Shown: one piece after another, positions 40,539-64,000 of the stretch
Numbering within the stretch: position 1 is the stretch's first letter
How the letters are laid out: every line of letters begins with the position of its first letter
Source of the DNA: an uncultured archaeon
Lineage (GTDB): Archaea > Nanobdellota > Nanobdellia > Woesearchaeales > UBA9642
Length of the DNA: 64,000 nt
Reading direction: 5' to 3'
NCBI GenBank assembly: GCA_963777125.1
Contig: CAVZPN010000024.1
Location: 6,596 to 70,595, forward strand
Notes under the pieces: model-generated
Told to the model about the DNA's origin: nothing
The model's input: only the letters and a program-made list of their open reading frames with translations
The model's database searches: none
Translations under genes and position numbers: made by a program

Positions 40539-41300
40539 TTAAAATTCAAACTCTTGTCCAGGTAACACGAAACCTGCAAAGCCATCTGCTTTAGGATTTT
40601 TTGTCTCCCAATTTCCACTAAGATGTACTAAATAAGTTTTAGCTCTGTGTTCATCAGACATTTCTCTAAGTAATTTATCATAAGATATATGTACATCTCC
40701 TGGACCAGAATAAAAACATTGACAATCTTGAAATAATATTTTTTTATTTTCAGGAGGTAATTCAATAGTATCGCCAGAATAATAAATCCCATTTGCAAAA
40801 TCTATTGCATAAGACTCCATTCCTTGAACATGCATTGTCGGTACAAATTTAATTTCAGGAATACCTGGAATATTAATTTTAGAACTTACAACCGAATTAA
40901 AATAAGTGTCGAGTGACGCATCTAATGCTAAACCATTAAAATTTTGTATTTTTTGCATCGAACCTTTTAAACAGTTATTCCAAAGCATTTGTTTAAATCC
41001 TTCTGAACCAAGATATAAGTTAGGATTTTGTTCTTCCCTTTTTTTTAATCCAAAATAATTCATAAAACCCAATCCTTCAAGTCCGCCAACATGATCGCTA
41101 TGAGAATGAGTTATTAAAATATCAGTTATACTAGCTAATTCTCCTCGTTTAAGTAATTCAGACGTTACAGTATAACCACAATCTACAAGAAGATTTCTAT
41201 TTTGATCTCCTTTAACAAGAAAACTAGTATTTCCTAGTTTAAAATTGAGTCCCGACCCTGTACCTAACCAAATTAGTTTCATAATACTATCACTACTCAA
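40539..41300 (-). CDS. MBL-fold metallo-hydrolase
   Basis: ITHSHSDHVGG (HxHxDH) zinc-binding motif and a downstream conserved His. Confidence 0.7.
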   Translation of the reverse strand: MSSDSIMKLIWLGTGSGLNFKLGNTSFLVKGDQNRNLLVDCGYTVTSELLKRGELASITDILITHSHSDHVGGLEGLGFMNYFGLKKREEQNPNLYLGSEGFKQMLWNNCLKGSMQKIQNFNGLALDASLDTYFNSVVSSKINIPGIPEIKFVPTMHVQGMESYAIDFANGIYYSGDTIELPPENKKILFQDCQCFYSGPGDVHISYDKLLREMSDEHRAKTYLVHLSGNWETKNPKADGFAGFVLPGQEFEF

Positions 41301-43496: not shown

Positions 43497-44544
43497 TCAA
43501 TTAGTATAATCCTTCCATCTAAATATTGCTGCAATTCCGGTTAGACCATCTAATTTTTTCATTGCATCATCGCTACTTATTAATTTAACTTCAGCATTCA
43601 TAGCTTCAACAAGAGTCATAATATTCTCTACTACATCATACTTATGCTCCTTTTTCATTTTTTTTATATAATTATCAGAAATTAATAATTTTGCAACATT
43701 TCCAGCATTTACTTTTTCAAGAACTTCATCAGTTCCGTATACTGCTTCATCCTTAGTAATTTTTCCAAGTAATTCCTCAACTAATTTTACTTCACGTGTT
43801 GCTCTATCTTTATCGAGTACTGTTTTTAATTCAGAATCTTTTTAATATCTCATTAATTGCGCCATCATCAACACTTGAACAAGTTGCCAGCACAATTTTT
43901 TTAAGTATAGTATCATCTTTAACTTCTTTGATTAAATATTCTTTCCAAAATGCAGGACTTGCAAGAATTATATTATCAAATAAATATTTATGATTATAAG
44001 CCAATATATGAGAATAGATTTCTTGATAAAAGTTTGTTTTCTTCTCCTCCATATCCTTCTTTGAAACATCTCCTTTTAAATCAAGTAAAACTTCATATCC
44101 TTGATTTTTGAGTACTGCAAATATTGCTTCCTCACAATCAAACGCAACTATTAAAATATTTACTATTTGAGCATTAATTGCTTCATCAAGCTTTTTTAAA
44201 GCATATTTTGACCAAACAGCCTTAGTAAGAGTCACAACTACGCCTGACGTTAAATCGAAAGTATGATAATCCCCTTTCGGAATATCGTCTGGTGCTTCAA
44301 TTATTTTACCAGATAATCTTAATGAATCTTCATGTTCTAACTTTTCAACTTGTATTTTTAAGAAAACTATACGTTTAATAATTTTAGATTTATCTTCAGA
44401 ACCGCCTAATTTTAATTTTCTTTCAGTTGTACCACTAATAAAATCTCCTTCTTCAATAATACCTGCAAGATGCCATAAATCCGTAGTATCATCTACTTTA
44501 AGCTTTATTTCTCCATGTTTTAAGTCCTTATCTAATATTTTCAT
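43497..44544 (-). CDS. pelA: Pelota (Dom34) mRNA surveillance factor, reading frame interrupted by a +1 frameshift at an A5 run
   Basis: 43831..44544 encodes the Pelota N-terminal and central domains (MKILDKDLKHGEIKLKVDDTTDLWHLAGII...). Manual minus-strand translation of 43497..43830 in the adjacent frame gives the eRF1-like domain 3 (ATREVKLVEELLGKITKDEAVYGTDEVLEKVNAGNVAKLLISDNY...AIFRWKDYTN*). Deleting one T from the T5 run at 43839..43843 joins them into one approximately 345 aa protein. Confidence 0.7.
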
Positions 44545-45679: not shown

Positions 45680-45892
45680 TAAATAATTAAGACATAACTA
45701 GTATATATTTGTTAGGTATTATAAAATATAGCTACTAAAACAAAAAATCGTAAGCAATAATAAATCAATTTTATTAACTAAAACAATAGTAATATTTATA
45801 AAGATGAATATCAAGTTTGATAATATTATCTCGAGTATTACAAAGAGTATTACAAGAGCAGAATTATCTACATAAAAAAAGGCATATTCAAG

Positions 45893-47578
45893 GTGAACAG
45901 CATGACTCAAAGAAGAGGACAAAGTGCAGGTAATGCAGCAGCATTTGTAGCAATATTAACCGTATTAATAATTGTATACATATTATTCTTACCTCCAGAT
46001 ATAAGAACTGAATTATTAGGAGATAAAAATGGAATATTAAATGATTCTAGTACTAGCACAAATACTGAAATACTATTAAAACAAAATATTGGCAAAGTCA
46101 CCTACATCAATACTGCTGAAAAAACATACGATTTACCAACTGTTCGAATATATTCTCCAACAAGCGGTCAAGTTCTAAAAAGTATTCCGAGTTCTAATAT
46201 AAGATACGCACTTTTTGATACTGAAAAATCTAAATATACTCTTGAATTAAATATTGATAAAAGATCCACAGAAAATCTTGTTTTAGTATTTAATGTCATG
46301 GAACATACAGGACCATTAATTATTGCTCTTAATGGTAATGAAATATTTAATGGCGAAGTAAAAACAACTAATCCTAAACCAATAAAACTTGATTCTGGAT
46401 CATTACTTGAAAACAATATTATAACATTTAGTGTCCCATCCCCTGGTTTAAAATTTTGGACTGCTAATAAATACACTTTAGAAAATATACAAATTACTGG
46501 CGATGTAACTGACTATAGTAATTCTATGGCCATACAAAATTTCGTTATAAGTCAAGTCGAGAAAGAAAATCTTGAAAGTATAAAATTATTTTTTTATCCT
46601 GATTGTGATTTATCTGAAGCTGGAAGCTTAAGAATTGATTTAAACGGAAGAGCAATATATAATAGTGTAGCAGATTGTGGAACAAGAACATTTGCAACAT
46701 TAAATACCAACGATATAATTTCAGGCAGTAATGAATTAAGATTTTATAGTGCTAAAGGATCATACATGTTAGATAATATGTATATCAAAACTACAATGAC
46801 AAAACCAGCATATAAAACATACTTCTTTGACTTAAAAGATGAATATTTTACATTTAAAACAAAAACTAGTATGTGTGGAGAATATGATGGCACATGTCCT
46901 ATTGGTTGTGATGAAACAACTGATGCTGATTGCTGCTTTGATAGAAAAGGATATTGGTGCGCTCTACCATTATCAAACGTTAATGATAGATGTAGATTCT
47001 ATGTAGCAAGCGATGATTGTTCATTATGTAAAACAGGATATTATGATGACAGCGGAGATGCTCCGACTACTTGTGAAAAAAAATGCGGAGATAACAACGA
47101 TAAAATCTGTGATAGTACTTGCTCGCAACCAAATAAATATTACGATAAAGATTGCTGCTTTGCACAAAGCAAGGATAATTTCTGGTGTAAAGAAACACCA
47201 ATAACAGGAATTGCAGACAAATGTAAACCAGCAATAAATCCTAGTGAATGTGACTTATGTCCATCAGGATACATCAATAAAGATGGCTCAGAACCTAAAT
47301 CATGTACTACTACAAACTTTAATATTCAAGATGAAGATTACTTATTTTCAAGCAATTATGAATTGAAAATCGTAGTTAAATTTGTTGATAGTACAACACG
47401 TAAACGTGTAGACTTTAATATCAATGGTCATACATTTAGAATTGATACAACAAATGTTGAATATACTAAATTAATCGCAGACTACGCTACAACTGGAACT
47501 AACAGCATTGAAATAAAACCAGTAGATAAAGATGTGGATATTTCAGAAGTTAGAGTAGAATTAAGAAGAGTTAAGTAA
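45893..47578 (+). CDS. pilin-like surface protein with class III (type IV prepilin-like) signal peptide and large Cys-rich ectodomain
   Basis: Likely true start is the ATG at 45902 (MTQRRGQ|SAGNAAAFVAILTVLIIVYILFL). This gives a short basic leader, a G at the cleavage position and a hydrophobic stretch. Internal duplicated Cys motifs (CSLCKTGYYDDSGDAPTTC / CDLCPSGYINKDGSEPKSC and DADCCFDRKGYWC / DKDCCFAQSKDNFWC). SD aggtga upstream. Confidence 0.55.
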   Translation: MNSMTQRRGQSAGNAAAFVAILTVLIIVYILFLPPDIRTELLGDKNGILNDSSTSTNTEILLKQNIGKVTYINTAEKTYDLPTVRIYSPTSGQVLKSIPSSNIRYALFDTEKSKYTLELNIDKRSTENLVLVFNVMEHTGPLIIALNGNEIFNGEVKTTNPKPIKLDSGSLLENNIITFSVPSPGLKFWTANKYTLENIQITGDVTDYSNSMAIQNFVISQVEKENLESIKLFFYPDCDLSEAGSLRIDLNGRAIYNSVADCGTRTFATLNTNDIISGSNELRFYSAKGSYMLDNMYIKTTMTKPAYKTYFFDLKDEYFTFKTKTSMCGEYDGTCPIGCDETTDADCCFDRKGYWCALPLSNVNDRCRFYVASDDCSLCKTGYYDDSGDAPTTCEKKCGDNNDKICDSTCSQPNKYYDKDCCFAQSKDNFWCKETPITGIADKCKPAINPSECDLCPSGYINKDGSEPKSCTTTNFNIQDEDYLFSSNYELKIVVKFVDSTTRKRVDFNINGHTFRIDTTNVEYTKLIADYATTGTNSIEIKPVDKDVDISEVRVELRRVK

Positions 47579-47625: not shown

Positions 47626-49182
47626 ATGGGAACAGATAAAGCCGATAAAGATACTGAGAATTCTAAAGAAACTAATAAAGTAGCTAACGCTGGTAAAAAA
47701 ACTGCTGATGCAATAAACGCAGCTGGCGACGCTACATTAAGAAGTTTACGTAATGCTGGAAAAGCAATTGGAGGAAGTGGCGATTCATCATCTAGTTCTA
47801 AATCAAGTAGCGGATCTAATGGTGCAATCGCAATATTATTTGTAATTTCATTATTTCTTCACATTCTTGATTCTATTACTAAATTTGATAGACCAGGATT
47901 TATGTTATTTTATTATATTGGTCTAATAATATTTGCTTTTTTCTTTATTTTTAATATGAAACTTAACCAAGAGGGTGAAAAACAATTATTAGTAGTTATT
48001 TTCATATCTTATTTATTGCCTTTTGCAATAAAATATTTACCAGATAACAGATGGATACTTGCAATTTCAGGAATACTATTTTTAATTCCACTATTACCAC
48101 TATATATTGGACTACAGGCACCTCAAGATTCATTTTTATATAAATTTACAAAATGGTATATTGTCTTTTGGATAATCATACTAGCATTTTATCTTGTAGC
48201 AACATTTGCACCGACACAAGTAAGTACAGCACAACTTAAAGGAAATGTATGGACAGGAGCATCATATGTTTTGGGAAATACTGGAAAAACAATAAGTACT
48301 GTTACAACATCAGCAAATAATGCTCTAGCACGTGCTATTGCGCAAGCAACTGGAGAACCATATGATGGTCAAGAAGAAAGCAGAGTTGGAATTTATGTTG
48401 AAAATGTTAAAGCACTAGAATCAGGATATAATACTAACTCGGATGTTTTTGTTGAAGCTAAAATTAAAGCAATAAATCTAAAAGAACCAGTTAGAGTTAC
48501 AACAATATGTTATATTCCTGCAGTTCGTCAAGGAATTACAAATCCAGCTATCTTACCTGAAGTTAGTGCAGATTATGAAAATATTATTGATTGTGAACTA
48601 GGAAAATTAACTGCAGGAAATCATGAAGTAAAAGTACGTGCAATATTCGAGTTTAAAAGTACATCAGATATTGAATACACTTTTGTTAGCACTAATATTA
48701 AAACTGATCAATATACTAAATTAAATATTGATCCTACAACAATTGCAACATATACAGGTGGACCAGTAGCTGTTGGTTTACCATCCATAAAACAACCATT
48801 ACGAATAGAATTAGATCCTGATAAAACTGATGCAATGACTTATCCATTTGGAGTTAGCTTACAAAATAAATGGCCGCAAGGAAAAATTATGAAAGGATTA
48901 CAGTATAAATTAAATACTCCAAAAGAAGTAAAATTAGTTGAATGTAGTAGAACACCTACTGAAGTAAAAGAACCTGATGTTGATGGAAGAAACATATACA
49001 TATTTAATATTGATACTACCAATGCTCAAGATGTATTTGATGCAGTTAGATGTAGAATGCAAATAAGTGACGCGAAAGGATTATTAGGTAATGATCTAAA
49101 AAGCGTAAAAACATTTGCTGCAGAAGCAACATACGAGTACTCAGTTGAAAGCTCTGCAAGTATTAATATTATTAAAAGTTAG
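47626..49182 (+). CDS. polytopic membrane protein whose extracellular C-terminal domain belongs to the locus-specific paralog family
   Basis: Ser-rich N-terminus and approximately 6 TM helices. Ectodomain has the family N-terminal block (VGIYVEN...NTNSDVFVEAKIKAINLKEPV) and a GGPVAVGLPSIKQP block. Confidence 0.5.
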   Translation: MGTDKADKDTENSKETNKVANAGKKTADAINAAGDATLRSLRNAGKAIGGSGDSSSSSKSSSGSNGAIAILFVISLFLHILDSITKFDRPGFMLFYYIGLIIFAFFFIFNMKLNQEGEKQLLVVIFISYLLPFAIKYLPDNRWILAISGILFLIPLLPLYIGLQAPQDSFLYKFTKWYIVFWIIILAFYLVATFAPTQVSTAQLKGNVWTGASYVLGNTGKTISTVTTSANNALARAIAQATGEPYDGQEESRVGIYVENVKALESGYNTNSDVFVEAKIKAINLKEPVRVTTICYIPAVRQGITNPAILPEVSADYENIIDCELGKLTAGNHEVKVRAIFEFKSTSDIEYTFVSTNIKTDQYTKLNIDPTTIATYTGGPVAVGLPSIKQPLRIELDPDKTDAMTYPFGVSLQNKWPQGKIMKGLQYKLNTPKEVKLVECSRTPTEVKEPDVDGRNIYIFNIDTTNAQDVFDAVRCRMQISDAKGLLGNDLKSVKTFAAEATYEYSVESSASINIIKS

Positions 49183-49195
49183 AATAATTTAACCA

Positions 49196-50671
49196 TTGAA
49201 AGGAACAGTTATGAAAATAAGTATTAAAAAAAATAATAGCGTATTAATGAGTATATTTATATTGCTTACAGTAATATTTTTAACAGGATGTCAGGGTAGT
49301 GGTACTACGGAAAAATATCGTATTGGAACTGAAGGATTAAACTTAGAATTTGCATCATCTAATGTTAAAAGTGTATACGAAAACGAAAACTTCGGAACAT
49401 CAATAATTATCAAAAATATTGGTAGTTATGATATTTTAGATCAGAGTAATCCCGCAATATTAAAAGTTAGTTTTGATGATTATAGATTAAAATTTACTAA
49501 TTCTAAAGAAAATGTTAAAGAACAACAAATGTTAATTAATGGTAAAAGCAAATATTATCCTAAAGGAGATGAAATAAACTCAGAATACTATTTTGAATCA
49601 TTAAAACTCACTGATTTGAGAGAAAAATCAACTACTGAAATTAATTATAACTTATGTTATCCATATAATACTGAAATAACCACAGTTACATGTATTGATA
49701 CAAAACTTGCTAATAAAGATCAAACTGCAGCAGCATGTGCAAGTGAAACATATAGCGGATCTCAAGGTCAAGGAGCACCAATTGTTATAACTAAAATCGT
49801 ACCAGAAATCATGTTGCAAACAGAATATGTACGTCCACAATTTAAAATATATATTGAAAATAAGGGACCTGGATATGTTAATAACGCAAATAGTTGCAAT
49901 GTTGCAGATATTAATGATAGATCATCTTCAGGAAGAGTTAACGTATACGCTACTCTTTCAGGAACTCCTTTAGAATGTGGTCCTGATAATTCAGCATCAC
50001 TAAAATTAGTTGATTCTGAATCATTTATTAGATGCTATCTTCCAAATAAAGAAAAAGGATATTCACGATTAGAAAAAAATTATTTAACTCCATTAACAGT
50101 TAGTATTGATTATACCTATACTGTAATTACTAAACAAGAAATAGAAATTAAAAGAGATGACACAATAGAACGTGTTGTAACAAAAGACTGTGATTCATAT
50201 CAAATATTAAATGAAAATAAAACATGTGTTGATAAATGCTTATATTGTACCACTCATCCAAATGAAGATGTATGTAAAGTAAATTTACCTTTTGCAGAAT
50301 TTGAATTTAAAGAAGGTTTTTCATGTAGTTGTACTCTTGATCAATGTAATAGCAGAAATAAAACAGGAAATTGTATTAAAGGATATTGCCCTGGTAGTTT
50401 GTATTGCTGTAATACTCCTGTTGTTTGTGATAAATATCAAATAGAATTTAAGGGAAAATGTATCAATAAATGCGATTACTGCAGAGATAACTGGACTACA
50501 AACCCTAATGATCCTATTTGTCTCTCTAAATATGATTTTACTAACGCAAAATGTGATTCAATTACTGCGACAACATGTGATTCATTAGCAAAAAATAATT
50601 CCTGCATAAAAGGATTTTGTGGAGGAACAGATTCAAATAAATATTGTGTAAATACCTTTCCACAAGTATAG
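49196..50671 (+). CDS. lipobox-containing (LTGC) surface protein, paralog family member with Cys-rich C-terminal repeats
   Basis: Signal peptide ending LTGCQGSG. Family N-terminal block (GTEGLNLEFASSNVKSVYENENFGTSIIIKNIG). GSQGQGAPIVITKI. Repeated CIKG(Y/F)C(P/G)G Cys motifs. Confidence 0.55.
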   Translation: MKGTVMKISIKKNNSVLMSIFILLTVIFLTGCQGSGTTEKYRIGTEGLNLEFASSNVKSVYENENFGTSIIIKNIGSYDILDQSNPAILKVSFDDYRLKFTNSKENVKEQQMLINGKSKYYPKGDEINSEYYFESLKLTDLREKSTTEINYNLCYPYNTEITTVTCIDTKLANKDQTAAACASETYSGSQGQGAPIVITKIVPEIMLQTEYVRPQFKIYIENKGPGYVNNANSCNVADINDRSSSGRVNVYATLSGTPLECGPDNSASLKLVDSESFIRCYLPNKEKGYSRLEKNYLTPLTVSIDYTYTVITKQEIEIKRDDTIERVVTKDCDSYQILNENKTCVDKCLYCTTHPNEDVCKVNLPFAEFEFKEGFSCSCTLDQCNSRNKTGNCIKGYCPGSLYCCNTPVVCDKYQIEFKGKCINKCDYCRDNWTTNPNDPICLSKYDFTNAKCDSITATTCDSLAKNNSCIKGFCGGTDSNKYCVNTFPQV

Positions 50672-50744: not shown

Positions 50745-52046
50745 ATGGTATTCAAACTAAACAATAAAATATTCTTAATAAGCACCTTAGTAATTGTTTT
50801 AATTTTAATTACTGGATGCGGAAGCACTACAAGTAATGTTCAAAAAAAATATTACACAGGATATAACAGTTTAGAAATGAATTTTTTAAGCGATAGTCCA
50901 CCATCAATATTTTATTATGACAGTGAAGCTCATGATAGAGGGGACTATGCTGCAAATACTATACCAATACTTGTTCAAATACAAAATAAAGGTTCATCTG
51001 ACAGTTATGGTGCATTATTTATACATGGATTTGATCCAAATATAGTTGCTATTCAAGGATATACTTCAGGATTTCCAGGATATAATGGTCCAATTAGAGG
51101 AGCTAGTTCTTTTGGCGGATGGTACGGTAACAATAATAATTATGCAATTAACGCATTAAATGTTCCTATAGGTACAAATAGCTATAGTTTAAATCTTCAA
51201 AAAGTCAATGGCCAAACAGGAATATCTTTTTCATCATTTGGATCTCGTTCACAATTATTCGGATCACTCGGATTCTCTAAGACATCACAAGTAGGAACTG
51301 GCTATACTGGAATAAATGTTGGTGTAGTACAAAATCGTGTTGGCTCAGTATTAAATCCTATAACTCGAGGAATGTTTAATCAATATGGTTGGAATGGTTG
51401 GTTAAAAGAACTTGAATTAGAGGGTAGAAATTCTGAAAATCCTGCAGGCGGAATGGATGTTATAGAATTCCCTGCAACAATATTAACACTTCCTCCATCA
51501 CTAGAAGAATTTAGACAAAGAGTAATGGTTACATCATGTTTTGATTACGCAACACATTCATCAACAATGGTATGTATTGATCCAGAACCATACTCTAATG
51601 TTAAAAAATCTTGTTTAATAAATACTGTAAGCGGAGGCGCAGGTCAAGGAGCTCCTGTTGCGGTTACAAGTATTGAACAAAGACCTGGCAAGGGCAGAAC
51701 TACATTTATTATAAATATTAGACACAATAAACAAGGAACATACGATGAATTATATGATTACTTTAATTTATACAAATGTGATCCAGCATCTGGCGCAACT
51801 GTAAAAACAAATGATAAAAACATTGTATATGTTGGATATGTGTACTTATCTCAATATGATATAACAATGGATTGTATGCCTGATCAAATGATTAGACTTG
51901 ATGATTCGGGTTCAGGTCAGATAACATGTTCAATAACTTTCCCAGAAGGAATGGCAAGTAGCGCATATCAAGCACCGCTTGAAGTAGAATTATGGTATGG
52001 TTATTCGAAAACAATATACAAAGATATGATTATTAGAAGAATATAA
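50745..52046 (+). CDS. lipobox-containing (ITGC) surface protein, paralog family member
   Basis: Signal peptide ending ITGCGSTT. Family N-terminal block (TGYNSLEMNFLSDSPPS...IPILVQIQNKG) and GGAGQGAPVAVTSIEQ. Confidence 0.55.
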   Translation: MVFKLNNKIFLISTLVIVLILITGCGSTTSNVQKKYYTGYNSLEMNFLSDSPPSIFYYDSEAHDRGDYAANTIPILVQIQNKGSSDSYGALFIHGFDPNIVAIQGYTSGFPGYNGPIRGASSFGGWYGNNNNYAINALNVPIGTNSYSLNLQKVNGQTGISFSSFGSRSQLFGSLGFSKTSQVGTGYTGINVGVVQNRVGSVLNPITRGMFNQYGWNGWLKELELEGRNSENPAGGMDVIEFPATILTLPPSLEEFRQRVMVTSCFDYATHSSTMVCIDPEPYSNVKKSCLINTVSGGAGQGAPVAVTSIEQRPGKGRTTFIINIRHNKQGTYDELYDYFNLYKCDPASGATVKTNDKNIVYVGYVYLSQYDITMDCMPDQMIRLDDSGSGQITCSITFPEGMASSAYQAPLEVELWYGYSKTIYKDMIIRRI

Positions 52047-52104: not shown

Positions 52105-53088
52105 ATGAATAAAGGCATAGTATTGGTAATGATTTTGGCTATAAGTTTGTTTTTAACTGGTTGCGGTAATACGGGCACAACAACCGGTAAAACATTTATT
52201 GGTGGAACAGAAGGATTAAAAACAAGTTTTCTTTCAGGAAATCCTCCAGCTGTAACAACAGACGGCGGAACTACACCATTTAGTATCGGCATAAAAATGG
52301 AAAATATGGGAGAAAGTAGTATTAAATCTAGCGACGGATATGTAGAAATTTGGGGAGCAGATGCTTCAACATATAGTTCTAAATATCCTGACTTTAAAAA
52401 AACATTTTCACAAGAAGCAACTTTTGGAGAAGAATTAAGTGGTGCTAAAATGAATTATGGTAACCAACTACACGGCGGAACCAGCACTCTTACATTTGAT
52501 GACTTAAAATATGTTCCTATAATCACTGGTGATAATCGTGAACAATTAATTAGAGCAAATGTTTGTTACAAATACTCAACACAAGCAACAGCACAAATTT
52601 GTGTAAAAAATAATATAGAACAAGCACTTAGTGGAAAAGAAATATGTACTGTTGAAGAAGAGAAAAATCCTCAAAATAGCGGCGCACCAATACATATTAC
52701 ATCATTAAAAGAATTCTATGGGGGTAATGGAAAAATAGGAATAACATTAACAATTGCTCATGTAGGAAATGGAGATGCATTTTTCAAAGATGATCAAATA
52801 AAATGCGTTGATAGCTTAAGCAACGGCGATAAAGGAAAAGTCAGAATAAAATTCAAAGACATACAATTAGGTGGAAAGAGTATTCCTGTAGTATGCCCTG
52901 GCGTTAGCGAAGATGGATATGTTAGATTGTATAGCGAAGGTGCAGGAAAAGAATCAACTAATGTTCAATGTACAATCGATGTTTCTGGCAATAAAAATGT
53001 TGTAGAGGTACCAATAGAAGCAGAATTAAGCTACGTATACTTACAACACATAGAAACTGGCTTAACAATACGACATGTAGTTCAATAA
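52105..53088 (+). CDS. lipobox-containing (LTGC) surface protein, paralog family member
   Basis: Signal peptide ending LTGCGNTG. Family N-terminal block (GGTEGLKTSFLSGNPPAV...FSIGIKMENMG) and NSGAPIHITSLKE. Confidence 0.55.
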   Translation: MNKGIVLVMILAISLFLTGCGNTGTTTGKTFIGGTEGLKTSFLSGNPPAVTTDGGTTPFSIGIKMENMGESSIKSSDGYVEIWGADASTYSSKYPDFKKTFSQEATFGEELSGAKMNYGNQLHGGTSTLTFDDLKYVPIITGDNREQLIRANVCYKYSTQATAQICVKNNIEQALSGKEICTVEEEKNPQNSGAPIHITSLKEFYGGNGKIGITLTIAHVGNGDAFFKDDQIKCVDSLSNGDKGKVRIKFKDIQLGGKSIPVVCPGVSEDGYVRLYSEGAGKESTNVQCTIDVSGNKNVVEVPIEAELSYVYLQHIETGLTIRHVVQ

Positions 53089-53354: not shown

Positions 53355-54575
53355 TTAACTTGTTACAAACATTCCGCCCATAAGTGTTGCAAACATCATA
53401 GAAGCCACATAATAAATTATTAATGATATAATTATAAATATTGGAATAAGCTTAGTACCATCTTTAACACTGCCTTTTCTAATAACACTAATTATAGCTG
53501 CAGAAAAGAACGAAGATATAATTAATACTAACATCGAAAATCTTCTAAAATCGTTAACATTAATGCTGTCATTAGAAAAATTAAAACTAAAAGAACCCAT
53601 ACCAGAGCTGTCTAATTGCAAACTACCAAAAATTTGCTGTATGATAATTAATAATTGAGTACTTAATGCAAATAATAATGGTGCCGCAAGTACTGAAGCT
53701 ACACCAATAAATATTGCATAAGTTGTAACACTAGCACCGATTTCTTTACGCATTAATTGCGTTTCTTTAATATTACTAGATAATTTATTCAATAATACTG
53801 CCATTTCTCCGCCGCTTCTAATACCCTCTACGATTAAATTTATTGTCTCTCGCAACATTCTTGATTCATACTTAGTTCCAAGACGCAATAATGCCGTTTC
53901 TAAATCATCTCCAACAATCGTAGATTTAGCAACATTTTCCATTTCTACAGCAAGTATTCCAAATTTTGATCGTATAGCATACCATAATGCTCTATCAACA
54001 GTCATTCCTGCACTAATATTAGCAGAAGCTAATTGTAAAAAATCAGGTAATGATTCTTCAATTTGACGTACACGATTATACATTTGTACATCCAAATATA
54101 AAAATATTGCAAGTATTGATAAAAAATATATTGCTAAAAATACTAATATCCAAATTACTAGTAAAAACAAGAATAATACATCAAGAGATTTATGATTAAC
54201 AATTACAAAAGATAAGATAATAAAAGATAATATTGCAGATATTATTGCGACAATTGTTAATATCTTTTTATTAATGTCTCTCGGACTAATCTCAAGACCC
54301 ATCCTAGTAACAAAATCTGCAAATAATCCTATTAACTTTTTTTTAGGCTTTGAAACTCTATCAAATTTACTGCTATTTTTTTGTAAGGCAACTCTCTTTA
54401 AATCTTTTTCAAAAGTGGCTTGATCAAAGTGTGCTTTTAATAAATTATTAAACTTGTCTCTAAAATTATTTAATGAGTTGAATTCTTTAAACTGTACAGA
54501 ACTATCTTGACTAGATATTAACTCTTCTTTAAAGTTTTTCAAACTTCTCTTTTTGTGTTCTATTGTATCGCTCAT
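53355..54575 (-). CDS. type II secretion system F-domain membrane protein (TadC/FlaJ-like)
   Basis: T2SSF-like segment (LPDFLQLASANISAGMTVDRALWYAIRSKFGILAVEMENVAKS...LETAL) flanked by TM helices. Confidence 0.65.
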   Translation of the reverse strand: MSDTIEHKKRSLKNFKEELISSQDSSVQFKEFNSLNNFRDKFNNLLKAHFDQATFEKDLKRVALQKNSSKFDRVSKPKKKLIGLFADFVTRMGLEISPRDINKKILTIVAIISAILSFIILSFVIVNHKSLDVLFLFLLVIWILVFLAIYFLSILAIFLYLDVQMYNRVRQIEESLPDFLQLASANISAGMTVDRALWYAIRSKFGILAVEMENVAKSTIVGDDLETALLRLGTKYESRMLRETINLIVEGIRSGGEMAVLLNKLSSNIKETQLMRKEIGASVTTYAIFIGVASVLAAPLLFALSTQLLIIIQQIFGSLQLDSSGMGSFSFNFSNDSINVNDFRRFSMLVLIISSFFSAAIISVIRKGSVKDGTKLIPIFIIISLIIYYVASMMFATLMGGMFVTS

Positions 54576-54633
54576 TTTTCTATTATTAATATTATTTATA
54601 CAATCATAATATAACTACATTATAAACATCATT

Positions 54634-55425
54634 TTATGTACTTATGGATGGTCTTGATGACTTTGCAACTGATAAAAACATAAATTGTACAAATCCAATC
54701 ATCACTGCAAGTACAACGAGTATAGTCATACTAATCTTTAAACCCATAAATGAAGCAGCAATTACTAGCATAGTTATTCCGAGTGATGGTACAATTATGG
54801 AAATAGTCATATAAAACATTGCTAAAGGACTAAGTTTTTTACCATATTCTGAAACAGCAATAGCTTGTTCTCGAACAATTTGTTCAGCCACTGAATTTAA
54901 TGCTCCTGCAACTTCAGTTCCTGTTTGCAAAGAATTCATTACTTGCCATAATAATCTTCGTAAATTTGGTGAAGGCGAAGTATTTAATGTATCACTTATG
55001 GCATCTTCCATTGTGGTCCCAAAATAAACTTTATTCAATATTTCACCAAAATAATATCCTATATATTCATAATTTTTTTCCATATCCTCAAATATTTTAT
55101 GTATTGGAACACCAGATTCTATTCCAATAATTAAAAATCGTGCAGCAAAAATTATTTCTTCATCTATTTTCTTTTTTATCTTTTCTATTTTTACATCTAC
55201 ATATTTTATAAAATACATAAATAAAAAAGGAAGACTAAATGGAATAATTAATATTGCCAAAAATGACGAAGTAAAAAAAAAGAACATAAAAAATAAACCT
55301 ATAGAAATCATCACTATTGTTGCAACTGTAGATTTAATATACTCTTCAGGCTCAGCAAGTATACCTGCTTGTCTAAGTTTTAGTCTTAACTCAGGCATAC
55401 GTTTGGAAAGGTAGGAATATAGCAT
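54634..55425 (-). CDS. type II secretion system F-domain membrane protein (TadB/FlaJ N-half-like)
   Basis: T2SSF-like segment (GVPIHKIFEDMEKNYEYIGYYFGEILNKVYFGTTMEDAISDTL) plus 3 TM helices. A 58 nt gap with stops in all frames separates it from the next gene. Confidence 0.6.
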   Translation of the reverse strand: MLYSYLSKRMPELRLKLRQAGILAEPEEYIKSTVATIVMISIGLFFMFFFFTSSFLAILIIPFSLPFLFMYFIKYVDVKIEKIKKKIDEEIIFAARFLIIGIESGVPIHKIFEDMEKNYEYIGYYFGEILNKVYFGTTMEDAISDTLNTSPSPNLRRLLWQVMNSLQTGTEVAGALNSVAEQIVREQAIAVSEYGKKLSPLAMFYMTISIIVPSLGITMLVIAASFMGLKISMTILVVLAVMIGFVQFMFLSVAKSSRPSIST

Positions 55426-55541
55426 AATATCACATTTTTGTTAAAACAATAACAACCCATAATAATATATTAAGGTTAAGTACAATATACTCACACATTA
55501 CAATTAATAGAGTATAATCTTATTATAATTAAAAGTAATAC

Positions 55542-57839
55542 TTATTTAGTTTTTTTACTTAGTTTATTCGATTTAGATGAGTCTAATTTTGCTTTAGTTT
55601 TAGAAGACCCTTTTGATTTGTTTTCAGTTGATTTTGTATTGGGCTTTTTAGAGGAACTAGATTTATTCAAATTATCATCTGGAGTAGTAGAATTAACAGC
55701 AGCATTAACTGCGCTTTTTGAATCGGAAGCATTAACAGCAGCAGCACTTGAATCTACAGTTGGAATTTTTAATGCAGAATTAGATTCTGGAACTACAGGT
55801 AATTCTATTTTTAGTTGTGATGCTAGAGGGAAATCTTTATTTGAATTAACATATTTCATAAGATTTGGCTTTGCAGTATAATATTCTGCAACAATTCTTC
55901 CTACACCATCAACATCATCAATATTTTTCGAAACTAAATATTTTAACACCTTCACCTTATCATCTAATTCTTTATTTATTTCAGCCGTAGTCATACCAGT
56001 AAACAATGCAATATTATCAAATAATGATTTAGATTTACTTATTTGCACAAGAACATCTTTATTAATATCATACTGCATTATTACATTAGCTTCACCAGTA
56101 GATAATATTTCAGCAATTTGGAACGTTCTTCTTTTACCGCTTCTTCTATTTCTAAATTGTACTATTATTAAGGATATTGCTGGCAACATAATTTTTGGAA
56201 CGTCAAGCGGAGCATTTGTCAATCTCTCAACTGTCTCTTTAGCGCTATTTGCGTGAAATGTTGCATATACTGAGTGTCCAGTGTGTATTGCTTCGAATAA
56301 TGTTTCTGTTTCTCTCTTTCTTCTAACTTCTCCTACAAGAATTCTATCTGGTCTCATTCTTAAACTATTAACGAGTAAATCTCCCATATTTATTTCTCCT
56401 TTTCCTTCAGCATTTGGAAGAGTAGTATTTAATGGAACCCAATGTAAAAACTTTGGAAGAACAATTTCTCTTGTATCTTCAATACTTAAAATTCTTTGAT
56501 TTGGCGGGAAAAAATTAGCGAAAACATTTAATGCTGAAGTCTTACCTGAAGCTGTTCCTCCTGCAATTAAAGCAGATAATTCAAATTGTATTGCTGTCCA
56601 TATTAATGCTGCAGCTTCAGCTGAAATTGTTGCTGTTCTAATAAATTTAGTTATAGTCCATGGATCCTTAGAAAACTTTCTAATAGTCATAGTATTACCA
56701 TTTGTTGAAACAGGACTTAAAGTAGCATTTACTCTATCTCCAGTTCCTAAATTTGCATCTAAAAGAGGAGTTAGAACAGTAATTTGTCTTCCGACTCTTC
56801 TTCCAATAATACTTGCATAATGTCTTATTTGCTCTTCACTTTTCAGATATACATTTGTTCTAAGCCAATTGTATTTTTTATGATATACCCATGCTGGCTC
56901 AGATGATTGATTTATTACTACTTCTTCAAGTAATTCATCATTCATTAATAATTCTAAATTACCAAGACCTAAACTATGCATTTTCAAATAAGATCTTAAA
57001 AATCCTACTGTATCAATATCGCTGTCAGGAAAATATTTACCGATAAGTATATCTATTAATTGATTAAATTTATCTTCCACCATATCTGTTTTTTTAACAT
57101 TACCTATTTCTTCTGCACCCAAACTTACCCTTCTTATCAATTCTAAACGTACTTTTTCAAGAATCATTTCGGTAGTTTTACTTATTGCGGAAATTTGTAA
57201 ATTATATATAGGAACAAATTCACCAATCTTTTTAACAACAGTCACAGTTATGGGAATACCTTCTGATTTAAATTCATAAGTATCGAGTAATTTATCCTCA
57301 TTACTCTCAATATCTTCAGAATCATTAGAAACTTTAGATAACTTTTTTGTATCTACTAAAATATTTTTAGCGGATTTAGCAGACTTATTACTTTTAGAAA
57401 GTTTAACTAAATTATCAACAGAATTAGTACTCTCACCAGCAGACTTAGTTGCAGTTAAATCTATAGACTTATCTATAATTTTGGCAGATTTATTTACAGC
57501 AGAATCTTTTGATAGATCCTCTTTTTGTATATCCTTAATTATGGATGATTCTTCTAACTCTTTTTTATATTTTTTAGAATTTTCTAAAGTCTTATCAAAA
57601 AGAGAATGAATTGCGTTAGAAACAACATTAACGGGATTTTTATCATTAGAAATAATTTCTGTTTTAGAAGAATTTACAGATTTAACATCATCAGCAGGCA
57701 TATTAAGAACATCTTTTTTAGAAGTAAGAGCAGTAACTGGCTCTTCTTTAGTATTCTTCTCTTTAGTAGCATGCTCTTTAACATGCGCTTTACTAGTTGA
57801 TGATTTTTTACTCATTATTTTCAATAGTCTGTTTCCCAC
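55542..57839 (-). CDS. FlaI/TadA/VirB11-family secretion ATPase with long K/S-rich N- and C-terminal low-complexity extensions
   Basis: Walker A GGTASGKTS, RPDRILVGEVR (Asp box region), ATFHANS His box. Approximately 200 aa N-terminal and 110 aa C-terminal K/S/N-rich tails. Confidence 0.85.
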   Translation of the reverse strand: MGNRLLKIMSKKSSTSKAHVKEHATKEKNTKEEPVTALTSKKDVLNMPADDVKSVNSSKTEIISNDKNPVNVVSNAIHSLFDKTLENSKKYKKELEESSIIKDIQKEDLSKDSAVNKSAKIIDKSIDLTATKSAGESTNSVDNLVKLSKSNKSAKSAKNILVDTKKLSKVSNDSEDIESNEDKLLDTYEFKSEGIPITVTVVKKIGEFVPIYNLQISAISKTTEMILEKVRLELIRRVSLGAEEIGNVKKTDMVEDKFNQLIDILIGKYFPDSDIDTVGFLRSYLKMHSLGLGNLELLMNDELLEEVVINQSSEPAWVYHKKYNWLRTNVYLKSEEQIRHYASIIGRRVGRQITVLTPLLDANLGTGDRVNATLSPVSTNGNTMTIRKFSKDPWTITKFIRTATISAEAAALIWTAIQFELSALIAGGTASGKTSALNVFANFFPPNQRILSIEDTREIVLPKFLHWVPLNTTLPNAEGKGEINMGDLLVNSLRMRPDRILVGEVRRKRETETLFEAIHTGHSVYATFHANSAKETVERLTNAPLDVPKIMLPAISLIIVQFRNRRSGKRRTFQIAEILSTGEANVIMQYDINKDVLVQISKSKSLFDNIALFTGMTTAEINKELDDKVKVLKYLVSKNIDDVDGVGRIVAEYYTAKPNLMKYVNSNKDFPLASQLKIELPVVPESNSALKIPTVDSSAAAVNASDSKSAVNAAVNSTTPDDNLNKSSSSKKPNTKSTENKSKGSSKTKAKLDSSKSNKLSKKTK

Positions 57840-57931
57840 TTATATCCCCACACCACTCTTAACAGTCTAAATTCTAACAGGTCAATATCCTCTCAATCAT
57901 CTCAATGTAGCAATAATACCGCATAAACATA

Positions 57932-57990
57932 CAATATATACTTAATATATATTTAATATATACTTAATATATACTTAAATAAATATTACA
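57932..57990. repeat. approximately 11-nt tandem repeat (ATATACTTAAT)x3-4 upstream of the FlaI-like ATPase operon
   Basis: caatatatacttaatatatatttaatatatacttaatatatacttaaataaat. Confidence 0.4.
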
Positions 57991-59151
57991 TTACTTAGTT
58001 TTTTTAAACATTGAAATTAATTGTGATATCTTTCCTTTAATAGACATCTTTTTATTCTCAAATTCTTTAATTTTTGATTCAATATCTTTTAATTCTGATT
58101 TAATATGCACACTTGAAGTTAATAGAGTAAATGAAATAACTTTTGCCTTTAAAGCTTCGAGTTCTTTTGCTAAAGATAACTTATCACTTTCAATTTCTGT
58201 AATTAATTTTTCAATAGTAATGTTTTTGGAAAAAAAGCCTTCAAAACCCTTATGTACTTTATCACTTAATGCTGAATGTGCATTAATACTTTCTTTTTGC
58301 GAACTTAATTCTTTCTCTATTTGTGCTTGAGTTTTAAAAATCTTATCTTCGTTTGATTTTAAAGCAAGTATTTTTTTTGTTAATAAACTACTTTTTTTAT
58401 CTGAAATTTCCTGATCTAAATTATCTAAAGAAAGTTTATATTTGAGAATAGTTTTATTAGCATCATCAAATTTATTTTTATAATCTAAGATAACTTTATC
58501 GATATTTTTCAAAGATTCTTTCAAAGAAGTAACTGTTCGTTCATAATCATTACGTAATTTTACTAATTCTTCAATTTTTTTACCATATTGATCAACATTA
58601 GTTCTTTCTTTTGCAATTACATTATGTAATTCATCATATTTTTGTGATTCTAATTTTAATTTGTCTTGCGCTTCTTTAACAAAAGAATCATAATCAATTC
58701 TCTGTTTATCAATATCTTTGCCTAAATTCTTTCTTAAAGAATCATATCTATCGAGTTCAGTTAATTGAGTTTTTACTAAATTAATTTCCTCTTTAATATT
58801 GCTTTGAATTTTTGCAAATTCCGCTCTAATAGTCTCAAAATCGCTAGTTTCTTCTTGTAATGCGCTTAATGCAACATCGATTTTTCTTGCTAAAGCATCT
58901 TTTTCTGATGTTACTTCTTTAATATTTGTTAATACGTCTTCTTTGCCTATTTTTCGTTCAGAAATAAATATTTTAGAAAGATGATACTCAAGACTTACAA
59001 GTCCTTCCTCTTCTAGAAATTCAGCCCATTCTTGCACAACATTCTTACCTACACCTAAAGTTTTTGCAGCTGAATCTAGATCTAAGCGCTTTTTTTCGGA
59101 TACAAGTTCAACTAACTTATCCACACCAGTTGTAATGCTTCTTCTCACCAT
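57991..59151 (-). CDS. coiled-coil protein with N-terminal winged-helix-like domain (pilus-locus associated)
   Basis: N-terminal LDLDSAAKTLGVGKNVVQEWAEFLEEEGLVSLEY is HTH-like. Followed by approximately 300 aa of heptad-rich sequence. Confidence 0.45.
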   Translation of the reverse strand: MVRRSITTGVDKLVELVSEKKRLDLDSAAKTLGVGKNVVQEWAEFLEEEGLVSLEYHLSKIFISERKIGKEDVLTNIKEVTSEKDALARKIDVALSALQEETSDFETIRAEFAKIQSNIKEEINLVKTQLTELDRYDSLRKNLGKDIDKQRIDYDSFVKEAQDKLKLESQKYDELHNVIAKERTNVDQYGKKIEELVKLRNDYERTVTSLKESLKNIDKVILDYKNKFDDANKTILKYKLSLDNLDQEISDKKSSLLTKKILALKSNEDKIFKTQAQIEKELSSQKESINAHSALSDKVHKGFEGFFSKNITIEKLITEIESDKLSLAKELEALKAKVISFTLLTSSVHIKSELKDIESKIKEFENKKMSIKGKISQLISMFKKTK

Positions 59152-59250
59152 CTTTATAAACTAAATTCACCTTTACTTATATAATTTTGTTACAACTATT
59201 AAATTAACAAGCACAATGATGCTTAAATTAATACTTCAATCTACCTTAAG

Positions 59251-60279
59251 TTAAGGACATGCTGTTTCATTTATATTATCTAAACCATAAAATGTTTTTC
59301 TATCTCTTGGCAATATTAAAGGATACAAAGGATTATGAGTTAAATTAATACATACTTTATTAACATTTAAATCGTTAAAATAAATATAATCTACCTTTAT
59401 TCGTTTAGGATATGATGTTAATTCGGGATTCAATAAAATCCTATCATCTACAATACTTTCTATACCGTAAGGATCTGAAGTAGTTTTTCCTTCAAAACGC
59501 ATAATAAAAGTAGGAGCATTACTAGATTCAATATAATACGAACTATTAATATGATTTTGTAAAGTCATAAGACTAATATCATTAAACAAAATACTAGAAT
59601 TAATAGTAGAATTTAATCTTCGGATAGTATTTGGAACTTTATTAAATGTATTTTTACTATATAAGGGATCTCTTAAATTATCAATAGGAACGGTTGTTAC
59701 GTATTCTTTATTAATATTCCATGATGCAGTATGTTTATTATCTATAAGAGTTATATTCAAAGCCATATATACATCAATATTCCATGGATCAGATTGCACT
59801 AAATTAATATTTGAAACATTAATGTTTAAATCCATACCAGTATTACTAGATATAGCATCTACTTTAGAAACATAATCATAAAAAGTCGAATTAGCCATTA
59901 TGGGCGAGTTAGTTCCATTTATTGTACCATAATAAAACGTTTCTCTAAAAGACTCATTAATATTTGTTAAATAAACCCCGCTCGTAGTTACATAATCCTC
60001 GAGAGCCAATAAAGTCCTAAACGCAGAGATATATGTTGCACGGTGAATATCATTATTTAAATTTTTAGTAAAATCATTCATTGATCTGATCCTTATTTGT
60101 TGTAATAATTCTTGATCTTGATATCTGTAATTACTAGCAGCAAAAAATATACTAAGTAAAATAGCAACCATAAGCGTTGTAACTAAAACATAAGTAAATC
60201 CTTTACGACTTTTTCTAGAAGTAATGATTAAATTAGATAGTATATTCTTTAAATTCTTAAGTAGCATAATCATTGCCAT
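59251..60279 (-). CDS. pilin-like protein with class III signal peptide
   Basis: N-terminus ...SRKSRKG|FTYVLVTTLMVAILLSIFFAA, a basic leader with G-F then a hydrophobic helix, like prepilins. Start overlaps the end of the giant upstream gene by 10 nt. Confidence 0.5.
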   Translation of the reverse strand: MAMIMLLKNLKNILSNLIITSRKSRKGFTYVLVTTLMVAILLSIFFAASNYRYQDQELLQQIRIRSMNDFTKNLNNDIHRATYISAFRTLLALEDYVTTSGVYLTNINESFRETFYYGTINGTNSPIMANSTFYDYVSKVDAISSNTGMDLNINVSNINLVQSDPWNIDVYMALNITLIDNKHTASWNINKEYVTTVPIDNLRDPLYSKNTFNKVPNTIRRLNSTINSSILFNDISLMTLQNHINSSYYIESSNAPTFIMRFEGKTTSDPYGIESIVDDRILLNPELTSYPKRIKVDYIYFNDLNVNKVCINLTHNPLYPLILPRDRKTFYGLDNINETACP

Positions 60280-63200: not shown

Positions 63201-64000
63201 GTATATTGAATCATAAAGGTTTACTGCACCAGCAATTCCTGGCAAATCATTAGTTTTATGAGTACTATAAGGATCATCTTGAAAATTATTTGTTTCATAA
63301 TCTATTTTTATATATCCTCCAGAGATATATGCTTTACTAAGATCTGTAAATGAAAAAGTAAAATTATTTTTGCCTTCAATTAAAGAAGCATTACAACCAG
63401 TTATTAACCAATAATCAGAAGTCATATTAATAGTAGATGCAGTAAATATGGAAACTCCTGTAGAACTATTACACGAAATATTGTTAATAGTTAAATGAAA
63501 TACTACACCCTCAGCGACATCTAATTCTAAAATCATTTGTAATACACGAATATTATTTAAATCAAAAGTTTTAGTGATATTACCCTGTCCGACAAACCCG
63601 CCAAAATAAGCATAGGATGAAGTTTTTTTATCACTTATTTTTCGTAAATAAGAAGTTCCTGACGAACCAAGTAATGGTTTTCCCTCTTCGATACCAGATA
63701 TCATTCTACTTGCAGAAATGGAATTTATTTTTAAAGCTAAATCTTGCAATAATATAGTGCTATTACCAATAGTAGTTTTAATACCATAATTATTAGGGAT
63801 AGAATTATTAATAACGTCTTCAAGCAATAATTGCGCTTTATCTTTCCTATTTGTCGCCCAATATATACCTATCTGCTCTAAAACAGTTTTATTAGTATCA
63901 GTAATATTTTGTGAATTTGTCTCATTAATAATAAAAGTGCTATTGAGCTCATTAATTCTTAATTCTGAAATTATAGATAAAATATCTTGTGATACAAAAG
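60270..64000 (-). CDS. giant extracellular vWA-domain protein (putative adhesin/tip protein), 5' end beyond window
   Basis: Frame is open from 60270 to 64000. I translated the 63828..64000 extension by hand and found no stop, so the protein is longer than 1,240 aa. MIDAS motif ITTDVSGSMDWE. Very many N-x-S/T sequons. Cys pairs. Confidence 0.6.
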   Translation of the reverse strand, partial: FVSQDILSIISELRINELNSTFIINETNSQNITDTNKTVLEQIGIYWATNRKDKAQLLLEDVINNSIPNNYGIKTTIGNSTILLQDLALKINSISASRMISGIEEGKPLLGSSGTSYLRKISDKKTSSYAYFGGFVGQGNITKTFDLNNIRVLQMILELDVAEGVVFHLTINNISCNSSTGVSIFTASTINMTSDYWLITGCNASLIEGKNNFTFSFTDLSKAYISGGYIKIDYETNNFQDDPYSTHKTNDLPGIAGAVNLYDSIYVPGELNSLNIYLHYRINTSTVQNTFFMTLGNKTVFLDNYSNGEVRMNLTDANFSIIDYSSFNSSTIPLRIGFENITLQTIRVGNGEGFGDIVITTDVSGSMDWEFDSDNDGDDIFDCSDPSLYSLSTSRISVARCVDKIFIDEVLLNTTLNRIGLVSYADDTKRKYNLTNDQNLLGDEIDLYSASGSTCISCGITDAYNLLSNLSAPQLHKDLWKYDITHQFNLPDSNWNIISYDDSSWLEGNVPIGYKVSGLGAVINSNNISADLWEYYSASVNDVLGSPNDFTSGRLNSTANTYGLNVSGNDGWDNKTGAYSGNSTAVTIAGISGGQLRINIGGVASRQTSDGSYGIQFNVTDEMLAIISNGGYAVVSFDYSWINSGSYKTADQVWIKARISNTSGNITYLGSQKDSGHTASDSTYEVWTTDDPDTNADDLAFSQDISSILTQSGSYYLDFGGKLSRDKATLSGIFYFDNVQIVFVNHVGNTYYRNTFSMTNLTRFSDARLYVASDNNTEVYLNGNLIDNDTTNHVRSYWNRNVSVPMSNFVEGNNILAVKLKNNDNLSGFIDVELRANMTERQSAILIMSDGDANSCVRAWDGVGSLNYCNDCSGRACCPNTTTGVFNVMCPTIADLGGSEDGNETAFAQVVNLSCYLHNSRNISIYSVAFGTSSSINGTKTLNLSAACDNSTHFYTTTDVSAIADIYQDIASSIVSGFSTRESQAMIFSGSAFAESTLYPDSYIAYNYTSLISPPVPGEIEITFESSKFNDCSPTINLPSGMRIIDAKITSYSGQHWTNYLSIDDVEVYNLSKYNSNYVRLGDPFIIQIPPSYLNNSGTHQLILATGDDPSVNTNCSVNNSFIYTALIPSTIARSEILPKVVGCKWIVESENNDNTTIFIPSNYAGSKVCNYTNSSQTFNPDYDFDDAYDLAVYNIFRQLDIDSNGKIIVSLAAEDLEVVVLTVGGLPYMWGPSVLNLEVWQ

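Follow-up and report, generated by a model that had tools for sequence, protein, structure and literature searches.

The 64,000-nucleotide stretch of archaeal DNA analysed here (hereafter the window), taken from contig CAVZPN010000024.1 of an uncultured member of the Woesearchaeales, carries a gene, gene A, whose product of 558 amino acids (aa) starts like an archaeal prepilin and is not pilin-like past that leader. Gene A is followed on the same strand by four further genes, B to E, beyond which lies a type IV filament locus. What, then, would a protein of this kind do with a pilin-type leader? An earlier note on the same sequence had proposed an unusually large, Cys-rich pilin-like protein, perhaps a minor pilin or adhesin. 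The Woesearchaeota, to which the gene belongs, are tiny DPANN archaea that are abundant, uncultivated and probably host-dependent. Reviews state that their cell surface is little known or not known at all (PMC5744192). The answer that we favour, with moderate confidence, is that gene A encodes a non-pilin surface protein anchored in the style of a pilin, and that it belongs to a conserved envelope module. Its location at the cell surface and its membership of the A-to-E operon we regard as highly probable.

Gene A, its family and its leader

The reading frame of gene A is open without interruption from 45893 to 47578 on the plus strand, its first codon being a GTG at 45893. The earlier note had placed the start at the methionine of MTQRRGQ, behind the Shine-Dalgarno (SD)-like sequence aggtga, and this placement is borne out: aggtga is separated by a 5-nt spacer from the ATG at 45902, and independent gene callers, working on another assembly of the same sequence, also return a product of 558 aa. 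Because of this spacing and these gene calls, we take ATG 45902 as the start of a gene whose stop codon ends at 47578. The protein opens with MTQRRGQSAGNAAAFVAILTVLIIVYILFLPP, and its N-terminal region reads MTQRRGQSAGNAAAFVAILTVLIIVYILFL followed by PP. The window is AT-rich (~28% GC). Gene A is no chance open reading frame (ORF). A search of 5.8 billion proteins found 116 close homologs, almost all of 557-590 aa. When the family profile was searched exhaustively, 1,400 representatives (50% clustering) matched, and for 553 the E-value was 1e-30 or lower. Among the top 150 matches of the profile search, ~40 were long forms like gene A and more than 100 were short forms of 385-420 aa, which carry only two Cys.

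All 116 homologs are unnamed or ‘hypothetical’ and none has a Pfam domain; where a source organism is given, it is nearly always a member of the Woesearchaeota or Nanobdellota. The family is encoded by 92 GTDB species representatives, for which the credible labels are Woesearchaeota or Nanoarchaeota. Scans of the products of A to E against Pfam and NCBIfam returned sub-threshold noise only (Big_7, TDE2712, LptM signal region). Gene A thus represents a real, conserved family of cell-surface proteins of Woesearchaeota that has no characterised member and is unannotated, together with its operon, in the protein family databases and source annotations that were consulted. Several public records with the operon bear the label Alphaproteobacteria, Allocoleopsis, Bacteroidota or ‘uncultured Methanosarcinales’ (P0030/P0123, P0133 and P0200; L006, L007, L010 and others). 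These labels are probably binning or labelling errors, because the genes of these loci stand in the one archaeal order seen elsewhere in the family.

Cleavage by archaeal prepilin peptidases (signal peptidase III) is set by positions -2, -1 and +1 of the substrate (PMC3387779). Archaeal substrates typically have a basic residue at -2 and many lack Glu at +5 (PMC3387779, PMC4371748), and the substrates of one such enzyme, EppA, need Gln at +1, with sites that read KGQ or RAQ (PMC4371748). The site in gene A, RRG/Q (here and below a slash marks the putative cleavage point), fits this pattern (K or R at -2, G or A at -1, Q at +1) at all three positions. Across the family, [KR][GA] occurs at a modal distance of 25-26 residues before the LFLP end of the N-terminal helix in 152 of the 172 members with a recognisable helix end, so that the distance from tripeptide to helix end is fixed in ~90% of members, and in 118 of those 152 the +1 residue is Gln. 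To set this against chance, we took 93 representatives, one per separate 50%-identity cluster, and scanned the region before the hydrophobic core (median 14 residues): the exact [KR][GA]Q was present in 70, compared with 8.7±2.7 in composition shuffles (maximum 17). Members that deviate mostly read KKSQ or K-x-[GA]Q, and the rest of the N-terminal tail is free to vary in length and sequence. Judged from sequence, the constraint on the leader exceeds what a plain signal anchor would need, and the conserved positions match the recognition pattern of archaeal prepilin peptidases, specifically the EppA type with Gln at +1. Whether the leader is in fact cut is a separate matter, on which we lean, without strong conviction, towards cleavage.

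Behind the leader lies a hydrophobic stretch of transmembrane (TM) length (~19-25 residues by hydropathy and an AlphaFold2 (AF2) model). Its end is the most recognisable part of the family: Y26, I27, L28, F29, L30, P31 and P32 are near-invariant or invariant columns, and the helix is broken at P31 and P32, each present in at least 90% of members. We also weighed a site for signal peptidase I and dismissed it, as the TM-length stretch runs into PPD with no small-x-small site. Of the earlier note’s class III prepilin or flagellin-type leader, the three key site positions, conserved beyond chance, and the hydrophobic helix behind them are supported, and the expectation of a pilin is not.

Predicted fold, cysteine modules and sequons

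The AF2 model of gene A, built from 80 sequences, has a mean predicted local distance difference test (pLDDT) score of 87. It places a helix at residues 10-29, the break at P31-P32, a short helix to residue 39 and a disordered linker at 40-52 (pLDDT <50). There follow two beta domains (~55-186 and ~187-316), two Cys-rich modules (pLDDT ~90) and a C-terminal beta domain (480-556). Foldseek searches of the PDB and of viral models returned only generic jelly-roll or carbohydrate-binding-like domains, at high probability and low TM-scores, among them GH35 C-terminal domains, BcsB, reelin, Cry protoxin, PNGase F and phage tail proteins of the LamG or F5/8-C type; no pilin was among these matches. 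A whole-protein sequence profile compared with PDB sequences found nothing. Domains 1 and 2 have weak sequence similarity to each other (z 3.3) and domain 3 has none to either. Jelly-roll domains are typically carbohydrate- or ligand-binding modules, and on the model gene A might bind a glycan or another ligand, an assignment that we offer only tentatively.

The earlier note had counted about 30 Cys in the protein; there are 22, of which C235 and C259 are invariant in the second beta domain and the other 20 are divided equally between two tandem modules of ~70 aa each. The internal duplication that it had described is genuine. Residues 323-393 and 394-470 align with 31% identity (BLASTP E 2e-15; local score z 13.9 against 1000 shuffles), and both of the quoted motifs occur once per module, as CSLCKTGY...C and CDLCPSGY...C and as DCCF..YWC and DCCF..FWC. 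Cys losses were seen in 21 of 71 long-form homologs and always removed exact pairs, never a single residue: 373 and 391 were lost together 10 times, their module-2 equivalents 450 and 468 six times, and 395 and 407 five times. The losses of 373 with 391 and of 450 with 468 each take one member of a CxxC and spare its CxxC neighbour, which argues for disulfide pairs rather than metal sites. A disulfide-rich extracellular module, as first suggested, fits this pairwise loss, and we consider it very probable that the modules contain disulfides.

The homology of the Cys module has so far led to no curated family or solved structure: Pfam and NCBIfam gave no match, and a profile compared with PDB sequences gave only noise at E 0.85. 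A word-index search with the Cys-module alignment (A4) had zero matches and missed the parent family as well, so it is uninformative about the module elsewhere. Within the family the picture is clearer. The short forms (~400 aa) lack exactly the double Cys module, which in the long form lies between the second and third beta domains, and the module is therefore a clade-specific insertion in one Woesearchaeal subclade that includes this organism.

Cys-rich additions were also observed in other members of the operon. Gene C has its own tandem-duplicated Cys module (aa ~330-491, z 16.6 between the copies), the ortholog of gene C in L001 also has 29 Cys, and in L002 the Cys-rich part is a tail at the C-terminus of gene B instead. 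A relationship between the modules of gene A and gene C was rejected (z <1). Disulfide-rich inserts therefore seem to have arisen more than once, in different members of the operon.

N-x-S/T sequons for N-glycosylation are strongly depleted in A, B, D and E relative to shuffled sequences. Gene A has one, with 7.0±2.3 expected (p 0.004), and none is found in D (5.0 expected, p 0.003), in E (2.9 expected, p 0.04) or in the ectodomain of B (2.7 expected, p 0.045). The same holds for the families, with a mean of 1.5 sequons against 4.7 expected in that of A (n = 260; 95% of members below expectation) and of 0.3 against 2.7 in that of E (n = 115; all members below expectation). A von Willebrand factor A (VWA)-like protein of the nearby pilus locus is sequon-enriched, with 47 against 22.6 expected. 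This pattern suggests that there may have been selection against N-glycosylation of the A-to-E module, which would be unusual for archaeal surface proteins, and it is compatible with tight protein-protein packing.

The A-to-E cluster and the adjoining pilus locus

Within the operon of the window, neighbouring genes are 13-73 nt apart, and A, B and E each have an SD-like motif in front (aaggtga-like before B and E). BLASTP relates genes C, D and E to one another as paralogs (E 5e-7 to 6e-8 and 2e-5), and their lipoboxes, of the form [LIV]-x-[GA]-C, are conserved. The model of gene E (pLDDT 92.6; predicted TM-score 0.85) consists of tandem immunoglobulin (Ig)-like sandwiches, whose structural neighbours are weak (MSCRAMM N2N3 domains, integrin thigh and calf domains, WxLIP). 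Besides the lipobox Cys, the E family has invariant ectodomain Cys at 154, 166, 181, 234, 264 and 289 (alignment A3), and the first four of these positions are common to C and E exactly, from which we infer that three disulfides are conserved in the tandem Ig-like core of C, D and E. That the ectodomain of gene B might be a further C/D/E paralog was not supported, as hhalign of the E family with this ectodomain was not significant; hhalign of the E family with A likewise found no significant relation.

Gene order is conserved far beyond this organism. In three distant genomes (L001-L003), A and B are followed by three or four genes of ~310-460 aa without a Pfam match, and pilus genes are not adjacent to A in any of the three. 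Across 83 loci, B and/or C/D/E-type genes follow A on the same strand wherever downstream DNA exists, and in most of them a divergent gene for Pelota lies upstream of A. By contrast, only 5 of the 83 loci have T2SS-E/F genes within 10 kb: L026 and the four nearest relatives of the window, L004, L005, L006 and L012. On the evidence of these sequences, A to E form a lineage-wide five-gene envelope cluster in which A comes first.

In the window itself, the Pelota gene is seemingly split (43497-44544, minus strand) into a 237-aa ORF with eRF1 domains 1-2 and a C-terminal-like 53-aa ORF (43497-43658), orthologs being 343-351 aa long; the split reflects a frameshift, an error of assembly or a pseudogene. 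Further upstream (40539-41300, minus strand) lies a 253-aa protein of the metallo-beta-lactamase fold that matches Pfam anti-Pycsar Apyc1 at 58.6 bits (cut-off 50). It may act as a cyclic-nucleotide phosphodiesterase, or be no more than a housekeeping enzyme like RNase Z.

On the other side, 270 bp past gene E, a complete Tad-like type IV filament locus begins on the minus strand, spanning 53355-64000 of the window and continuing into L084 (2577-8882). Within the window it encodes a coiled-coil protein, two T2SS-F proteins, a T2SS-E ATPase of 765 aa whose long N-terminus is of low complexity, a pilin-like protein of 342 aa and the large VWA-like protein. The true start of the VWA-like protein lies ~130 nt beyond the window end, so that the ORF listed at 60270-63827 is N-terminally truncated; past that start, outside the window, come four canonical small pilins. 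This locus shows what genuine pilins of the same organism look like. Of its six proteins with class III leaders, five (four small pilins and the VWA-like protein) have D or E at +5, in QAAME, QVSME, QIAVE, QVWTD and FFYTMD, and the four small pilins follow the pattern Q-x-x-x-[DE]-[FY]-L. Gene A reads QSAGN from +1 to +5, and its family consensus is QSASS (S, N or G at +5), with no E[FY]L motif. The pilin sites KG/Q, RA/Q, KA/Q and NG/Q imply that a [KR][GA]/Q type of site is in use in this genome. None of three pilin features was found in gene A, these being an acidic +5, conserved linkage to genes for the assembly ATPase and platform, and a helix packed on a globular head. Gene A is probably cleavable, to judge from its leader, and not built for filament assembly, and we think it likely that it is not a pilus subunit. 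The earlier note was right that the mature part is far larger than normal pilins; size is not exceptional for this leader type, given the 1287-aa protein with a class III-type leader in the pilus locus.

The window’s pilus locus implies that an A24 (prepilin) peptidase would be encoded elsewhere in the genome. A motif scan of the flanks of the 83 loci, an extension past the window end and a phmmer search with the L002 A24 protein over 1.4 Mb turned up no A24 copy in this organism’s available DNA. That L002 protein is encoded by a 361-aa gene (2760-3845) ~3 kb upstream of the A homolog; it scores 25.8 bits for Arc_PepC (cut-off 23.4) and is also a weak Peptidase_A24 match, with both Asp contexts present. 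The phmmer search with it found homologs in L023 (5951-7066) and L082 (3641-4762), 3-6 kb upstream of A. A24 loci are thus present alongside the gene A family in three other Woesearchaeal species (L002/L033, L023 and L082), which shows that Woesearchaeota with this family encode the enzyme. The proximity of A24 to A is probably inherited synteny rather than functional coupling, because in both L002 and L023 the genes in between are a LeuA-like gene and Pelota.

Table 1. Positions of gene A, its parts and its operon partners in the window, with the leaders of proteins compared with it (aa, amino acids; a slash marks the putative cleavage point)
Feature	Position	Strand	Basis or remark
SD-like aggtga	45891..45896	+	Sequence read
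Gene A, 558-aa surface protein, stop included	45902..47578	+	ORF and independent gene call; identical to P0001
Basic leader MTQRRG, putative prepilin-peptidase site between G6 and Q7	45902..45919	+	Conserved [KR][GA]Q
Hydrophobic N-terminal helix Q7-P32, ending in near-invariant YILFLPP	45920..45997	+	Hydropathy; conserved columns; AF2
Flexible polar linker, ~aa 40-54	46019..46063	+	pLDDT <50 at 40-52; variable length and composition in family alignment
Beta jelly-roll domain 1, ~aa 55-186	46064..46459	+	AF2 strands, pLDDT ~90; Foldseek
Beta jelly-roll domain 2, ~aa 187-316, with invariant pair C235/C259	46460..46849	+	AF2; alignment
Cys module 1, aa 324-393; 10 Cys: 325, 332, 336, 344, 345, 353, 364, 373, 376, 391	46871..47080	+	
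Cys module 2, aa 394-470; 10 Cys: 395, 403, 407, 418, 419, 429, 441, 450, 453, 468	47081..47311	+	
C-terminal beta domain, ~aa 478-558	47333..47575	+	AF2 strands 480-556; kept in long and short forms
Gene B, 518 aa, polar N-terminal tail, ~5 TM helices, C-terminal ectodomain	47626..49182	+	Hydropathy; after A in most loci
Gene C, lipobox LTGC, paralog of D and E, duplicated C-terminal Cys module	49196..50671	+	Gene callers start at 49211
Gene D, lipobox ITGC, paralog of C and E	50745..52046	+	
Gene E, lipobox LTGC, two tandem Ig-like beta sandwiches, six invariant ectodomain Cys	52105..53088	+	
342-aa pilin-like protein			Pilus locus; leader SRKG/FTYVLV
VWA-like giant ‘pilin’, 1287 aa			Pilus locus; leader NKA/FFYTMDALLAS
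Small pilin, 162 aa			Leader KKKG/QAAMEFLMTYGW
Small pilin, 148 aa			Leader RA/QVSMEYLIIFG
Small pilin, 139 aa			Leader KA/QIAVEFLLLL
Small pilin, 176 aa			Leader NG/QVWTIDFLVG

Alternatives and known systems

Taken as a pilin-style-anchored surface protein, gene A would be inserted through Sec and have its 6-residue leader clipped on the cytoplasmic face, after which the mature protein would stay anchored, or oligomerise, via its helix and would not polymerise into a pilus. The flexible linker would set the three jelly-roll domains away from the membrane, the two disulfide-knotted ~70-aa modules between jelly-rolls 2 and 3 would probably serve as a rigid spacer, and A would work with the polytopic B and the lipid-anchored, tandem-Ig C, D and E as an envelope or adhesion module. 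Several points weigh against this account. Between the putative site and the strong hydrophobic core lie 5-9 small or polar residues (QSAGN or QSASS), where in the organism’s pilins the core begins sooner; ~10-25% of the family is off-motif (KKSQ, K-x-[GA]Q); and the motif might in principle be kept for some other reason at the membrane interface. The earlier note had tied its leader assignment to the presence of a prepilin peptidase in the genome, and none was found in the 64-kb window, whose polytopic ORFs were inspected, or in the ~5 kb past its right end, the A24-type enzymes being those of the three other Woesearchaeal genomes with the family. The jelly-roll matches, generic and with low TM-scores on a multi-domain model, point to no particular ligand. 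Much of this can be taken to mean that the leader is never cut and that A is a plain type II (N-in) signal anchor, K/R-G/A-Q being the product of the positive-inside rule and a helix-capping preference. The hydrophobic stretch, at ~20-24 residues ending in PP, is of TM length, no AxA-type signal peptidase I site is present, and the small polar residues, the window without a peptidase gene and the off-motif minority all sit comfortably with it. The positive-inside rule, however, covers K or R and not a G or A followed by Gln; a fixed distance of 25-26 residues to the helix end across sequences of only ~30% identity would go unexplained; and the same tripeptide stands on genuine pilins of the same genome. 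We therefore treat an uncleaved anchor as a serious alternative that is nonetheless rather unlikely.

The pilus next door invites another reading, in which A is a minor pilin or tip adhesin whose cleaved helix sits in the filament core and displays the large domain. Gene A has the class III-type leader for it, the complete pilus locus lies close behind gene E here and in L004, L005, L006 and L012, and that locus itself encodes very large pilin-like adhesins, including the VWA protein. Yet this adjacency is absent in 78 of the 83 loci while the order A-B-C-D-E is kept, A is transcribed divergently from the pilus genes, its family has S, N or G where five of six leader proteins of the pilus locus have D or E, and the helix is followed by a disordered 13-25-residue linker where a pilin has its packed alpha1-C and globular domain. 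With jelly-rolls beyond that linker and a Cys module that most top-scoring members lack, the minor pilin or adhesin of the earlier note is an improbable identity for A. Still less credible is that the Cys modules bind metal (Zn or Fe-S) or are redox-active and that A is an extracellular electron-transfer or metal-sensing protein. CxxC (CSLC, CDLC), CC and Cx3C spacings are present, and the organism is probably anaerobic, so that extracellular disulfides are less expected. But C373 and C450 disappear together with the distant C391 and C468 while their CxxC partners are kept, as fits disulfides and not tetrahedral metal sites; no His is conserved; most top-scoring members of the family do without the entire module; and in other ectodomains of the operon, too, the invariant Cys are even in number. 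We consider a metal or redox role very unlikely.

Returning to A as a pilin-style-anchored member of an envelope module, we consider the A-to-E module a strong candidate for a core structure of the envelope or of attachment in Woesearchaeota, because the gene order is kept across 83 loci, drawn from the 92 species that encode the family. A bolder version would make A-B-C-D-E the principal envelope lattice or host-attachment complex of the group, in which prepilin-peptidase processing was recruited for a non-filamentous, glycan-free structure, with A as a jelly-roll ‘stalk or lectin’ on pilin-like helices, the Ig-like lipoproteins as the layer, B as the base, and sequon depletion reflecting tight lattice contacts; this is speculative and, in all its parts together, unlikely. 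The favoured model predicts cleavage after G6, three specific disulfide pairs and no N-glycans and, if true, would extend the non-pilin users of the pilin-type leader beyond Sulfolobus. At the same time, the idea of a large Cys-rich pilin becomes less remarkable, as the Cys module is subclade-specific and the protein would be no pilin.

The individual principles have precedents, in class III leaders on non-pilins, jelly-roll surface domains, lipobox proteins and disulfide-rich inserts. Archaeal lipoproteins of the AliA/AliB pathway resemble C, D and E, the partners rather than A itself, in having a conserved lipobox after the signal sequence, and lipidation is predicted for these three; lipobox proteins are prevalent in DPANN archaea (PMC12462473). 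Galactose-binding-like jelly-rolls and those of carbohydrate-binding modules (GH35 beta-galactosidase C-terminal domains, BcsB, PNGase F, Cry protoxin) share the fold of A at a Foldseek probability of 0.97-1.0 and E 1e-7 to 1e-4, whereas identity is 6-13%, TM-scores are low and A has no catalytic domain, so that function is not transferable. The reelin repeat (PDB 6a48, 2e26), among the top Foldseek matches, likewise has jelly-rolls interrupted by a small disulfide-rich module; it belongs to the eukaryotic extracellular matrix, however, and its module is EGF-like, while that of A has 10 Cys per unit and is not EGF-like by sequence. For the leader, the nearest parallels are the EppA-processed pilins of Methanococcus maripaludis and this organism’s own DUF361-like pilins, which have the same K or R, G or A, short leader and +1 Gln (PMC4371748). 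Unlike A, these genuine pilins are small (139-176 aa here), have D or E at +5 and the E[FY]L motif, and are encoded beside the assembly ATPase and platform. The sugar-binding proteins of the Sulfolobus bindosome, which have class III leaders (PMC3047682, PMC2910488), differ from A in their periplasmic-binding-protein fold, their ABC transporter neighbours and a dedicated Bas ATPase and membrane-protein system; A has jelly-rolls instead, lipoprotein and polytopic partners, and no ABC transporter in its operon (in the window and in L001-L003). The likeness is one of anchoring mode only: these are surface proteins of large size and not pilins which, as proposed for A, are made with a pilin-type leader, keep their N-terminal hydrophobic helix and reside in the cell envelope instead of building a filament.

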